Source: Escherichia phage VB-EcoM-WM
Reading direction: 5' to 3' (one strand)
DNA length: 64,000 nucleotides
Sequence record: PQ014731.1
The notes under the pieces were generated by a model. It was not told where the DNA came from. It saw only the letters and a program-made list of their open reading frames with translations, and ran no database searches. Positions 44,888 through 55,147 of the stretch are shown piece after piece (the stretch's first letter is position 1; the number at the start of each line of letters is the position of its first letter). A program made the position numbers and the translations under genes.

Positions 44888-45199
44888 CTATACCCATGAG
44901 GGCTTGTCTAGGTTGGAGTAACTGAAGGGGGTCAAAAGGTGACTGTCAAAATCTTTCAAACTGTCCAAGTCTTTTTCCTCGTCCTGACACCATCTGTGCC
45001 TGCATTTATTGTTGTAGTGCATGGAATGCATAGCGTTCTGCAACTTAATAGGCACAAGTGATTCAGGAGTAGATAGAACTGTTGGGTATGCCAGAACTAT
45101 CTCAAACAATGGAAACACATCGAAACTGAAGTCTATTTCTGCTGAGGTTGCTGGCATATAGGAGTATTTAGCTGTCGTTGTAGACATAATCCACCTCAC
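44888..45199 (-). CDS. hypothetical protein (103 aa)
   Basis: ORF-track ORF. Confidence 0.5.
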   Translation of the reverse strand: MRWIMSTTTAKYSYMPATSAEIDFSFDVFPLFEIVLAYPTVLSTPESLVPIKLQNAMHSMHYNNKCRHRWCQDEEKDLDSLKDFDSHLLTPFSYSNLDKPSWV

Positions 45200-45522
45200 A
45201 CAGGCTTGATAATACCTTCACCGAATAACTCTTCATATTTAATCTTATCAGGATCCCACTCCTGGATAATTTCGAAGACAATATCCAGCCCAGGGATAAT
45301 CACTTCTCCGGTATCAAGTTTGGCAAGAACAAAACCTGAAGGTTGAATGGTTTCCCAGTTGCGGCGATTAGAATAGAAAACTTCGAAAATATCCCCCACC
45401 GCAATCTGTTGATCAAGGTGCTCAAGATTCTCTTTCATATAAACGCAGCGTATTTTCCGCGCAGGCCACAGGCCCCCTGCATCACGTTCATTTAGCTCTT
45501 TTACAGTAATCGGCATTCGCAT
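45196..45522 (-). CDS. hypothetical protein (108 aa)
   Basis: 4-nt overlap with downstream gene. Confidence 0.5.
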   Translation of the reverse strand: MRMPITVKELNERDAGGLWPARKIRCVYMKENLEHLDQQIAVGDIFEVFYSNRRNWETIQPSGFVLAKLDTGEVIIPGLDIVFEIIQEWDPDKIKYEELFGEGIIKPV

Positions 45523-45545
45523 CTCTGATCTCCTTCATAGATAGT

Positions 45546-45569
45546 AAAAAAGAGGGGCCAAAACCCCTC
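45546..45569 (-). terminator. rho-independent terminator (minus strand)
   Basis: On minus strand GAGGGG-TTTTGGC-CCCTC then TTTTTT, just after stop at 45577. Confidence 0.6.
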
Positions 45570-45576
45570 TTTGTCA

Positions 45577-45882
45577 TTATTCTGCAGAGCGTTTGAACAG
45601 AATGTCTGCTTCAGACATGTGCTCAACCTCTTCTTCGATTTTAGCTCGACGTTTTTCAGCTTCGTAGCGGATATCGAATTCGGTAGCCACCAAAGATTTA
45701 ATAAACTTAGGAGAGTACAGGTGATCCTGTTTCTCGACAAGAATGATATCTTTGATAGCATCTTTCAGATCTTTGATCTGAAGCTGAAGTTCTACCAGCT
45801 CTTCAATTGTTTTACGGAGGCGATCACGCTCTGCAGTGTCAGAAGGAAGAGAGGTGAACAGTTCAACTTTAGATTTAGCCAT
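45577..45882 (-). CDS. hypothetical protein (101 aa)
   Basis: RBS AAGGAGA on minus strand. Confidence 0.5.
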   Translation of the reverse strand: MAKSKVELFTSLPSDTAERDRLRKTIEELVELQLQIKDLKDAIKDIILVEKQDHLYSPKFIKSLVATEFDIRYEAEKRRAKIEEEVEHMSEADILFKRSAE

Positions 45883-45905
45883 AGTAAGAGTCTCCTTATG
45901 TTGTT

Positions 45906-46229
45906 TTAAATTAACGTTCTACAAAAAATACCATTCAGTTCGATAACCAGGAATTTCTGATCTTCACTATCGTCACGTGCCAGCACTTCACAGACGTAAC
46001 GGTCATCTCCGTCATCATCACAGTCAAATACAAGGCTGAGGACTTTATCATGATAAATCTTCGACACTACTGCCTCGTAAGTATTGCCGATTGTGAATCC
46101 AAGATAATCCCCGATGCATTTGACAACAACATGGTCGCCAGCGCTTAAGTCAATCTTCGTCATTACTGTGCTCCTTGGGTGATAATATGGTATGTAAAAC
46201 TTTAACCAGAGATGTGAATAACGCCCCAA
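45906..46229 (-). CDS. hypothetical protein (107 aa)
   Basis: ORF-track ORF. Confidence 0.5.
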   Translation of the reverse strand: MGRYSHLWLKFYIPYYHPRSTVMTKIDLSAGDHVVVKCIGDYLGFTIGNTYEAVVSKIYHDKVLSLVFDCDDDGDDRYVCEVLARDDSEDQKFLVIELNGIFCRTLI

Positions 46230-46318
46230 AACACACAGATAGCGCTAAAACGGATAAGGCCATCATTAAAGCTTCAGTAAAATCAGTCATTCCTCACCTC
46301 TTGTTAGTAACTATACTA

Positions 46319-46582
46319 TCATTTATCTTCGCCGTCAAGAACTTTTTTAAATCTCTCAGGAATATCTCCTGTTCTTAGATAGCTCATGACCTCCCAAGGT
46401 TTCCACTTGAACTTCTTGCACAGTAAGGCAGCCGAGATCGTCTCGTTGCGAAAAGAAAGGATATTAATATCCCACTCTGAGAACCCCAATTTCCGAAGAG
46501 TGGCTATAGAAATCCTCACAGCAACCCAACAAGAGAGGCACGCAACAAACGCCACTGCCACAACCCACATCAGGATGTTCAT
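46319..46582 (-). CDS. hypothetical membrane protein (87 aa)
   Basis: N-terminal hydrophobic segment ILMWVVAVAFVACLSCWVAV. Confidence 0.5.
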   Translation of the reverse strand: MNILMWVVAVAFVACLSCWVAVRISIATLRKLGFSEWDINILSFRNETISAALLCKKFKWKPWEVMSYLRTGDIPERFKKVLDGEDK

Positions 46583-52814: not shown

Positions 52815-53276
52815 CTACTTAAACAACAGTTCAAGATAGTGCAAAATTAACAGAAGTTGAATTACGCCTAGCACAACGGCAAGTATGTTAATCTTAGAAT
52901 CAAAAAACTTCTTAACTTTTGCCCTAAAAGGCTCCTTAATGTCCTTTACGATCCTATTTATAGATGATTTCATATCCCTGATTACCATCCTAAACATTAG
53001 AGACGGATCTTCCTTCTCTGTAACAGAATCGAAAACATACTCTCTTCGGTCATAAGGACCTCCAGATCTGCGTATTAACCTCTCCACAGAGACCTCGTAC
53101 GACACACCTGTAACGTAATCATCTATGACAAGTAGTGACGGGTCTTTATCGTCCAAGGGTATCAAAGTTATCTTTCCAGATTTTGTTAAAATTTCTCCTT
53201 TTTCAAGCAAAGTGTACCAATGCTCTCTACCAAGATTGTTGAGGCACGTTTTTACATATTTAACAAACATCGTCAC
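52815..53276 (-). CDS. hypothetical protein with C-terminal hydrophobic segment (153 aa)
   Basis: ORF-track ORF. Confidence 0.5.
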   Translation of the reverse strand: MTMFVKYVKTCLNNLGREHWYTLLEKGEILTKSGKITLIPLDDKDPSLLVIDDYVTGVSYEVSVERLIRRSGGPYDRREYVFDSVTEKEDPSLMFRMVIRDMKSSINRIVKDIKEPFRAKVKKFFDSKINILAVVLGVIQLLLILHYLELLFK

Positions 53277-53476
53277 CCCTCATCGCACGTCTGATATAAC
53301 CATTCTATGAAATCTTGATACCACTCTCCCTCTGAGCGCTCCGTAGGCCAATAATCTTCCCCCTCTCTTGCATTAAAATCTGAGTATTCAACTTTCCACT
53401 CCTTTACCAGCTCGTGGAGAAGGTTTTCAGCCTGTTCTAAGGATTTATTTTTTGTCATTACTGTCCCCTTTTTCAA
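53273..53476 (-). CDS. hypothetical protein (67 aa; start may be internal ATG at 53458)
   Basis: ORF-track ORF. Confidence 0.45.
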   Translation of the reverse strand: MKKGTVMTKNKSLEQAENLLHELVKEWKVEYSDFNAREGEDYWPTERSEGEWYQDFIEWLYQTCDEG

Positions 53477-53678
53477 GATAATTATACATCAGAACTGCAC
53501 CACCTAAGATGGCTACCAGCAACAATACCCCAGATAGCATCTCAATAAACATGGCTTGAAACACTAGAAGGCCCCCTCTAATTTCACGCACCATTTTAAA
53601 TACATATTCTTTTCCCATAAAGGTGCCCGGCTAAGATCTGCGTAGAACGCAATCTCTTTAAGAACAGTATAAACAGTT

Positions 53679-53915
53679 TTAGGTGCGGTATCCATCCCTG
53701 CTCTCCTTTTTCTCCTTACGGGTATTCTTGTAGTAATCAACTAGGCACATTATTACGATGAAGATAACAACAGGCCAAAAAGGTGCAGCAGTGATGATGG
53801 TGATAAAATCATCAAACTTCACCCTTCGTGTAGACACGATGCATATACCTGTCAATATTACTGCTGTTATAACAGCTACTACTAGGTAACCTATTAGCAC
53901 AGCATTTATACTCAT
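53679..53915 (-). CDS. hypothetical membrane protein (78 aa)
   Basis: Two hydrophobic segments. Confidence 0.5.
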   Translation of the reverse strand: MSINAVLIGYLVVAVITAVILTGICIVSTRRVKFDDFITIITAAPFWPVVIFIVIMCLVDYYKNTRKEKKESRDGYRT

Positions 53916-53933
53916 TGGCCCCTCCTTCGTAGG

Positions 53934-54479
53934 TTAAATTGTGCACTTCAGGTGGTTGTCGATGGTGTCAAGAAAATTATCCCGTTCTTTCTCAGAGTTT
54001 TCACGGATGTAGCTGAAAAACATATCTAGAATAACCTTATTGATATATTCCAACTCCTCTGTGTTCAGGTACTTAGCAGGATCTACAATGACATCCCAAG
54101 TATCATACAGACCGCACTCATGATACCCCCAACGCCGCTCAATTGTCAAACTAATCGGCAAATCTTTACCGTCACAAACAACCCTCCATCTACAGATGCT
54201 GGTATCTGGGCGTACCTGTGCACGGTATACCTGTACAAAATCCAATTTGAATTTGAGGTACTCGTCATACAATTTAAGCACAAAGCTCTCGATTTGTGGA
54301 GACACTTTTGCAGCAAACTGTGCGTATTTGTACTTGCACTGGATGATCTTTCTGCGTTTTGCAGTTAAATTTTTTGCAGCCAGTTGTTCTTCAGTGTACC
54401 TCCACCTACGATCAACAAACGCAACAGGGTCTTTGTCACCATAGAGGTCTTCCCAGTTAATCAGAAGCATACCTGTCAC
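53934..54479 (-). CDS. hypothetical protein (181 aa)
   Basis: ORF-track ORF. Confidence 0.5.
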   Translation of the reverse strand: MTGMLLINWEDLYGDKDPVAFVDRRWRYTEEQLAAKNLTAKRRKIIQCKYKYAQFAAKVSPQIESFVLKLYDEYLKFKLDFVQVYRAQVRPDTSICRWRVVCDGKDLPISLTIERRWGYHECGLYDTWDVIVDPAKYLNTEELEYINKVILDMFFSYIRENSEKERDNFLDTIDNHLKCTI

Positions 54480-54709
54480 TCCTCCACAACTTCAAGGCCT
54501 TTGCCGCCTCGTTCTGGTAGATTACTTAAAGACAGGTAATACGTATAGTCAGGAGAGATCCTACCAGACTCTGCACCTGCAGATAGTAAATCTTTTCCCT
54601 TAACCATGACAACATTATCGTTTGCAGATAGTCGTTTTGCTTCCACAATTTTACCAACGCAGTCAACCAAGGAAGGGTACCCTAAATCTGTAAGAAATTT
54701 AACTTTCAT
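54476..54709 (-). CDS. small protein, MKVK family member 3
   Basis: MKVKFLTDLGYP...DLLSAGA...LEVVEE. Confidence 0.5.
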   Translation of the reverse strand: MKVKFLTDLGYPSLVDCVGKIVEAKRLSANDNVVMVKGKDLLSAGAESGRISPDYTYYLSLSNLPERGGKGLEVVEE

Positions 54710-54748
54710 GCTACCTCCTACTTCTACCGTCCCTGGTAAGATAAATTA

Positions 54749-55147
54749 TTACTGAACAAAGCGCGGAGCTGGGAAGGATAACTCTTCTAAAGAGAAGATT
54801 TCATTCCCCACAATCCATGTTGCAGGATCATCTGGGTTGACTGGATAGATAATCATCACCTCGTCAGTGTTACATACCCGCTTTTTACCTGTGGAGTCAT
54901 CAGCAACCAGCATGCGCGGTTCTTCAGAAATGCACAGGTAGCCTCCTCGGCCCACTGTTCCTTCCACAGGGTCTTGTCCTTTGATCACGATGATTATCTT
55001 CTCTCCTGAGGCGATATTACCTTGCACACTCACCGTTTGACCAACCTTGGATGTGCCAATCTTAGTGACTTCGAACATTACATCCCGAATTACTGTTGCA
55101 TAATCGCCAGACACTTTCTTACCTTCTTTAGTGATCTCAATCTTCAT
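54749..55147 (-). CDS. hypothetical protein (132 aa)
   Basis: MKIEITKEG start. Confidence 0.5.
   Translation of the reverse strand: MKIEITKEGKKVSGDYATVIRDVMFEVTKIGTSKVGQTVSVQGNIASGEKIIIVIKGQDPVEGTVGRGGYLCISEEPRMLVADDSTGKKRVCNTDEVMIIYPVNPDDPATWIVGNEIFSLEELSFPAPRFVQ

Follow-up and report, generated by a model that had tools for sequence, protein, structure and literature searches.

The 64,000-nucleotide stretch of Escherichia phage VB-EcoM-WM (sequence record PQ014731.1), referred to below as the window, contains a minus-strand block at positions 44888–55147, in which about 34 tightly packed genes encode proteins with a median length of 94.5 aa. Twelve of these genes were assigned to three families of paralogs, designated A (five members), B (five members) and C (two members). 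Judging by sequence comparison, the paralogs appear to be old duplications maintained by purifying selection, and models of families A and B support an SH3-like barrel as their common predicted fold. Upstream of the block are genes for a ClpP-like protease and an N6-adenine methyltransferase. The block matches about 120 Vequintavirus genomes, including those of rV5, FFH2, B9-1 and BASEL phages Bas49–59, with 90–97% nucleotide identity and nearly always over its full length. The nucleotide identity of 95% to Vequintavirus genomes identifies the phage as a Vequintavirus, an rV5/FFH2-like E. coli myovirus.

Genes are named below by their lower coordinate in the window. The open reading frames (ORFs) singled out in the initial annotation are all present on the minus strand where it placed them. 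In three of them the true start likely lies slightly inside the ORF, at 47896 and not 47899, at about 50572 and not 50584, and at 48703 for the ORF 48371–48730, the last being the start annotated in phages EmilHeitz and rV5. The description of the products as small and acidic holds: 20 of the 34 block proteins have an isoelectric point (pI) below 5, and all members of families A and B fall between pI 4.05 and 5.4. The expansion of paralogous families, also proposed in that annotation, is real and was understated, and the similarity is significant beyond composition in each of the three groups.

All-against-all BLASTP of the block proteins was run with composition correction. The trio 50585, 50829 and 54476, grouped initially by a shared N-terminal pattern and the DL(I/L)(A/S)AGA motif, proved to be related: 50585 and 50829 are 38.5% identical over 83 aa (E 7e-15), and 50829 and 54476 are 32% identical over 77 aa (E 4e-7). 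All three match the whole phrog_5009 profile of the PHROGs database (E 5e-31 to 4e-38), and the motif varies little or not at all in the family A alignment. Two further members, 48708–48971 and 48371–48703, were found with local profile searches, jackhmmer and hhalign. The family A hidden Markov model (HMM), compared with 385 window ORFs, matched 48708 with E 2e-6 and 48371 with E 6e-5; the corresponding hhalign probabilities were 91.6% and 93.7%, and each protein outscored all 2000 composition-matched shuffles. PHROGs places 48371 in phrog_13661 and 48708 in phrog_13920, apart from phrog_5009. Gene 44036 and the members of family B were also considered for family A and rejected, their scores to the family A profile not exceeding those of shuffles.

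Word-indexed protein searches with 50829 and 50174 gave close orthologs only. To recover the relatives of family A, 1.84 billion representative proteins had to be searched exhaustively with an HMM; these relatives form only 45 clusters at E ≤ 1e-3. The cluster consensus, MKVKLLxxGGYxGL..VGKV..A....I.GxDLIxAGA....F....Y.F..G.E.E(V/I)(V/I)EE, ends in E(V/I)(V/I)EE, so the acidic "EVVEE" end is conserved in family A itself. Some relatives are tandem-repeat proteins, with three repeats in P0012 and two in P0024, and others carry uncharacterised extensions; no informative domain fusion was found among the longer relatives. An HNH domain in one relative (locus L012) is probably an adjoining homing-endonuclease ORF joined by a crude ORF call, and a relative with DUF7399 (P0103) is a chimeric fragment from a 657-bp contig. 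A fusion or gene conversion between 50829 and 50585 was suspected in AlexBoehm, naam and other phages, where tblastn matched residues 1–62 only; both genes are intact in 12 of 12 genomes, and the match is limited to these residues because the acidic tail is variable. A true chimera was found solely in metagenome contigs of no more than 133 kb: the 70-aa protein P0006 matches 50829 in its N-terminal two-thirds and 50585 in its C-terminal third, which looks like a deletion through unequal recombination of the tandem paralogs in some uncultured Vequintavirus.

The initial annotation had also grouped 47639, 49060 and 47288 by their MK(I/V)K starts and EVVEE-type acidic ends. Pairwise comparison does not bear this out (BLASTP E 0.1–4), and the three proteins lie in three different PHROGs; leave-one-out profiles with shuffle controls do support the group and bring 46672 and 46959 into it as family B. 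Four contiguous genes at 46672–47899, together with 49060, show a common full-length pattern by eye. In leave-one-out searches with profile HMMs against the 385 ORFs, each omitted member was the top non-seed match (E 2e-3 to 3.5e-5, with 7e-3 for 46672), background ORFs began at E ≥ 0.2 and other acidic ORFs of the block did not score. In the composition-matched control, family B outscored all 2000 shuffles in five of seven leave-one-out tests: the real score was reached by none of the 2000 shuffles for 49060, 46959 and 47288 and by two for 46672. The match of 47639 to the profile of 46672 and 47288 was weak, its score being reached by 35 of 2000 shuffles; a separate hhalign comparison connects this protein to the adjoining 47288 (E 7e-5). 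A coherent alignment can be made of all five sequences, in which a Tyr of the C-terminal strand is invariant. On these profile comparisons, family B is real yet very divergent (20–31% identity), and PHROGs does not recognise it, splitting its five proteins over phrog_12794, 12457, 12155, 12359 and 11868.

Beyond the genus, a Foldseek search of viral predicted structures with the family B model gave one clear homolog, which is 86 aa long and comes from Vibrio phage Vc1 (E 6e-5, template modelling (TM) score 0.74, 30% identity). The next match was an 83-aa protein of Vequintavirus CM1 (TM 0.51). In some records the family B gene 49060–49329 is wrongly named as an HPF/RaiA homolog, the true HPF homolog being its neighbour 49467–49784.

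The two members of family C, 47976 and 50174, are 27% identical over 118 aa (E 1e-11 in a single comparison and 4e-10 in the all-against-all BLASTP), and the motif HPxS..(Y/H)YW.....WTP, by which they had been paired in the initial annotation, is aligned between them. Both match phrog_7379 over the full length, with E 4e-66 for 47976 and 4e-73 for 50174. A 26%-identity match of 50174 in phage EduardKellenberger turned out not to represent a distant homolog; the protein matched was 47976, its paralog, because the ortholog of 50174 is deleted in that phage.

AlphaFold models of families A and B, with predicted local distance difference test (pLDDT) scores of 92 and 89, respectively, are both five-strand SH3-like barrels, and their best structural neighbours fall in the SH3-like barrel fold class. 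The five-strand topology is that of small beta-barrels such as eukaryotic SH3, the KOW domain of NusG/Spt5, PsaE and ribosomal L24. A shared predicted SH3-like fold is supported by these models for all ten A and B proteins. In both models the MK(V/I)K start forms the first strand of the barrel and the (Y)E(V/I)VE(E) end forms the last one; the two strands are adjacent and together close the barrel, which is why neighbouring proteins that look unrelated have these termini in common. Across the two strands, the alternating Lys and Glu side chains would pair. In the family A model, strand 3 is followed by a short helix, GxDLIxAGA, that is a signature of the family, and the family B model has two helices between strands 2 and 3. 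Fold and strand order are the same in the two models; in sequence, the A and B profiles align over 29 N-terminal columns (a hairpin) only, with hhalign 19% and E 1e-3. No Pfam family, SH3 and KOW profiles included, was matched at E ≤ 1 by the ten proteins scanned, and families A, B and C gave no meaningful match in Pfam, NCBIfam, PADLOC or the PDB sequences.

Selection was assessed by comparing the window with 11 other Vequintavirus genomes, in all of which the 34 block genes are present. The gene-wide ratio of nonsynonymous to synonymous substitution rates (dN/dS, Nei–Gojobori), a measure that could hide a few positively selected sites, is 0.001–0.32 for the whole block and 0.03–0.16 for the 12 paralogs (0.09–0.13 in family A, 0.03–0.16 in B and 0.04–0.07 in C). 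Orthologs are 89–99% identical, whereas paralogs are 20–46% identical. The universal presence, the low dN/dS and this gap in identity point to long-fixed, individually maintained copies. On this comparison, the paralogs are old duplications, every copy of which is kept under purifying selection, and not the products of an arms race. The diversifying selection suggested in the initial annotation is contradicted by these values, as well as by a segment of the block that is intact in 114 of 117 records.

This segment, 50260–54073, is exactly what blastn mapping found missing in phage EduardKellenberger (Bas59, 131.5 kb). The deletion is clean, 3.8 kb in size, with an overlap of about 15 nucleotides at the junction, and joins the 3′ end of 50174 to the 5′ part of 53934–54479, which the BASEL annotations call a "putative glycosidase". 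Other partial deletions within the segment occur in MaxBurger and V18, where its coverage is 47% and 75%, respectively, so the stretch appears to be deletion-prone. The natural deletion in Bas59 means that the deleted genes are dispensable on E. coli K-12. The plating efficiencies of Bas59 equal those of Bas57 and Bas58, which by the record counts should carry the segment intact, on 10 of 11 defence systems tested, and the host range is the same (PMC8594841). The exception is EcoPI, on which the three phages differ in a way that does not follow the deletion (PMC8594841). The comparison bears on 50585, 50829, 50174 and the 11 systems, the remaining paralogs still being present in the phage. Within this limited panel the deleted genes give no anti-defence phenotype, with redundancy with the remaining paralogs as a caveat.

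A consensus scan detected 43 sigma70-like sites against 27.4 ± 4.5 expected. Six of them match the consensus at 11/12 positions and contain a perfect TTGACA; all six lie on the coding strand, with starts at 54149, 52315, 50347, 49860, 47957 and 43908. In rV5, genes 82–163 were described as one transcription unit with E. coli-type promoters, and the paralogs go unmentioned (PMC3606486). Early transcription of the block by the host RNA polymerase is likely, since the promoter matches, the rV5 annotation and the rV5 paper agree. A literature search found no transcript data and no functional or transcriptomic study of block genes.

Outside Vequintavirus, homologs of family A occupy nin-type and integrase-proximal early accessory regions of unrelated temperate phages. 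The lambdoid phage MagusPhagus has a single family A gene after the Q antiterminator, which the family HMM matches at E 6e-19. In prophages of Providencia and Moellerella and in IMG/VR contigs, the gene is found in a stretch with recombination or SSB genes at one end and the integrase at the other, and adjoins a P22 NinX-family gene; some temperate-phage or prophage loci hold two or three copies. The nin and ea regions of lambda and P22 and the early small genes of T4 and T5 are likewise dense in small genes transcribed by the host RNA polymerase and dispensable in the laboratory. The likeness is in genomic role only, no homology to a characterised nin, ea or T4 early protein having been found. 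Beside the family A gene of MagusPhagus, positions 8695–9916 contain 4–5 genes encoding proteins of 70–95 aa with the common pattern F..G..Y....(V)...DD.G..W, possibly an unrelated paralog array of small barrels.

The reading that we favour, to which we give about an even chance, is that the A and B barrels are stand-alone protein-binding modules made early, each with its own long-fixed target and with a benefit in natural hosts that can be spared in the laboratory. Ancient duplications in an early/middle accessory region transcribed by the host RNA polymerase would have produced the three small-protein families. In the early phase of infection, each A or B copy would titrate a host or phage protein of its own, acting as an adaptor, decoy or inhibitor. 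Subfunctionalisation of the copies would lie far back in time, and each would give a fitness benefit in nature with which the phage can dispense on laboratory E. coli K-12. Several points weigh against this. None of the family members has a known binding partner, phenotype or biochemical activity, and the missing phenotype of Bas59 could mean either redundancy of paralogs or genes that matter little. The alignment of A and B in sequence is confined to the hairpin, so that their common ancestry is a possibility, and the predicted SH3-like fold applies to these two families. Finally, the genes share a long transcription unit with replication genes, so a role internal to the phage is possible.

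Such a role, in which the families would serve the phage's own replication, transcription or assembly as accessory factors or chaperones, is nevertheless considered improbable. It would agree with the strong conservation of the genes, with the transcription unit common with nucleotide-metabolism and replication genes (rV5 genes 82–163, PMC3606486) and with two products of the block, a T4 DsbA-like transcription regulator (phrog_639) and a protein that carries a virion-structural annotation. Against it, at least three members are dispensable, as Bas59 demonstrates, and family A is shared with small temperate phages whose replication and morphogenesis modules are entirely different. A host-takeover or anti-defence function, conjectured in the initial annotation, would fit the early sigma70 promoters, the small size and acidity of the proteins and their residence in accessory regions of other phages. 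The narrower proposal of anti-defence proteins, that is, inhibitors that an arms race would have diversified against restriction, abortive infection or other immune systems, seems unlikely, if a little less so than an internal role. The proteins are small, acidic, preceded by early promoters, dispensable and without assigned function, and family A lies in temperate-phage accessory regions, where counter-defence genes often reside. Ocr, Arn and Ugi are small, strongly acidic early phage inhibitors or DNA mimics. Families A and B resemble such inhibitors in being small, acidic and early, but they are predicted beta-barrels and not elongated helical or charge-array mimics, so that their fold differs from the known helical DNA mimics, and no inhibitory activity is known for them. 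Moreover, purifying selection, near-universal presence and the lack of allelic turnover do not suit an arms race. Vequintavirinae are "exceptionally susceptible" to restriction–modification systems (PMC8594841). The Bas59 deletion is without a restriction–modification-related phenotype and without a change of plating on 10 of 11 systems, a panel of 11 only, in which the remaining paralogs could compensate. Scans of Pfam, NCBIfam, PHROGs, PADLOC and PDB, libraries not devoted to anti-defence profiles, gave no match to a characterised anti-defence family.

Small barrels of the Sm, KOW, Tudor or OB-like type could also bind host or phage RNA or DNA, and we regard this as very improbable for the present families. 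Direct nucleic-acid binding is unlikely because the A and B proteins are acidic (pI 4.05–5.4, net charge −1 to −22), and Pfam detected no KOW or Sm sequence motif. The explanation by chance, in which acidic Lys/Glu-rich small ORFs resemble each other in composition and form no real families, is largely refuted and scarcely credible. In its favour are the non-significant pairwise BLASTP of the "EVVEE" trio and the shuffles that reached the score of 47639. However, families A and C are found at E 1e-7 to 1e-15 with composition correction and are assigned independently by PHROGs, while family B passed most of its shuffle tests with no other acidic ORF scoring, and its alignment yielded a confident AF2 model. 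A bolder extension of the favoured reading, which we regard as improbable, is that A and B, perhaps with singletons such as 45906–46157, form one ancient superfamily of SH3-like "decoy" barrels, with at least ten specific binders, every one of which would neutralise or redirect a host protein of its own. If so, candidate targets would be immune sensors not among the 11 systems, or partners of KOW/Tudor-type domains on RNA polymerase or the ribosome, and the barrels would constitute an unrecognised modular class of phage host-manipulation proteins, present in temperate phages of Enterobacterales as well.

The core of family A and family C were already clustered in PHROGs as "unknown function": the trio 50585/50829/54476 and the pair 47976/50174 are full-length, high-scoring members of phrog_5009 and phrog_7379 (E 1e-31 to 1e-73), entries that give neither function nor fold. 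New here are the wider membership of family A, the recognition of family B as one family, a fold assignment that accounts for the common termini, and the evidence from selection and from the deletion. About one-third of a conserved early block consists of two or three duplicated small-protein families of no known function, in a group among the commonest E. coli phages that is widely used in phage-therapy and biocontrol collections. As it stands, this is an ordinary, tidy case of uncharacterised phage accessory paralogs, which corrects the expectation that duplicated small phage families must be arms-race genes. The 12 proteins make a compact, tractable set for interaction and toxicity screens and, if specific host targets exist, could be useful as small inhibitors. 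The coordinates of the features are listed in Table 1.

Table 1. Paralogous genes of the block and associated features (window coordinates; leave-one-out HMM E values and shuffle counts as described in the text).
Feature	Coordinates	Strand	Remarks
Family A, 74 aa, most typical copy	50829..51053	-	overlaps and in tandem with 50585-50839; modelled as SH3-like barrel
Family A, 84 aa, loop insertion of 14 residues	50585..50839	-	BLASTP E 7e-15 to 50829; phrog_5009 E 5e-31
Family A, 77 aa	54476..54709	-	phrog_5009 E 9e-36; nearest copy to MagusPhagus homolog
Divergent family A, 87 aa	48708..48971	-	HMM E 2e-6; phrog_5009 only E 1.4e-4
Divergent family A, 110 aa, starts MKVRFIGE	48371..48703	-	profile match confined to C-terminal half, residues ~69-108
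Family B, 85 aa	47639..47896	-	modelled SH3-like barrel, helical insert between strands 2 and 3
Family B, 116 aa, additional acidic C-terminal tail	47288..47638	-	leave-one-out HMM E 3.5e-5; 0/2000 shuffles
Family B, 109 aa	46959..47288	-	leave-one-out HMM E 2e-3 and 9e-5; 0/2000 shuffles
Family B, 95 aa	46672..46959	-	leave-one-out HMM E 7e-3; 2/2000 shuffles; aligns coherently with family
Family B, 89 aa, apart from the four contiguous copies	49060..49329	-	leave-one-out HMM E 2e-4 and 4e-4; 0/2000 shuffles
Family C, 131 aa	47976..48371	-	phrog_7379; BLASTP to 50174
Family C, 132 aa	50174..50572	-	ORF runs to 50584; phrog_7379; BLASTP to 47976
HPF/RaiA ribosome-hibernation homolog	49467-49784	-	own strong sigma70-type promoter 49860-49832; annotated in many records
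Segment naturally deleted in Bas59	50260..54073	.	holds 50585, 50829, most of 50174, ~10 other small genes
Sigma70-type promoter, 11/12, extended -10	47929..47957	-	upstream of family B array; corresponds to rV5 P150
Sigma70-type promoter, 11/12	49832..49860	-	upstream of HPF homolog; corresponds to rV5 P144
Intrinsic terminator, 10-bp stem then T run	45549..45572	-	annotated at the same place in rV5
Strong terminator	44863-44844		one of two strong terminators, with 45549..45572

Nearly all other genes of the block are labelled "hypothetical protein" in every record. The product of 45577–45882 matches the phrog_639 "transcriptional regulator" (E 1e-21), is called a T4 DsbA-like double-stranded-DNA-binding protein in some genomes and is encoded by a gene that ranks among the most conserved in the block (dN/dS 0.012). 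The labels of 52815–53276 conflict across records, being "virion/putative structural protein" (also phrog_7821) in some and "HNH homing endonuclease" in others; the protein has a hydrophobic segment at the C-terminal end, and the HNH label appears doubtful. Genes 46319–46582 and 52409–52756 encode a near-identical N-terminal hydrophobic segment, ILMWV(A/V)VVAFV (BLASTP 69% over 13 aa, hhalign 61%), and are probably two small membrane proteins sharing a signal or anchor. The 83-aa protein encoded by 45906–46157 (GDHVVVKC...GFTIGNTYEAVV...DDDGDDRY) resembles another small barrel; its ortholog may be the CM1 protein that was the second Foldseek match of the family B model, with which it agrees in length. 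A possible fourth pair of paralogs, 49866 and the C-terminus of 53934, was rejected, hhalign giving 47% but BLASTP not being significant (E 0.29).

No tRNAs or Rfam families were found in or adjoining the block, and no notable repeats downstream of it. At its downstream end (window ~40000–44000) the block gives way to some 3 kb with few genes, where the alignment to Bas59 is split into many pieces by indels. In phage Gotham, the corresponding region contains the physical end of the genome and a terminal repeat of 459 bp. Across the block, 18 MG0656xx records ("Campylobacter phage ...", UNVERIFIED, labelled Campylobacter jejuni) are about 92% identical to the phage studied here, and their host attribution or sample purity looks questionable.

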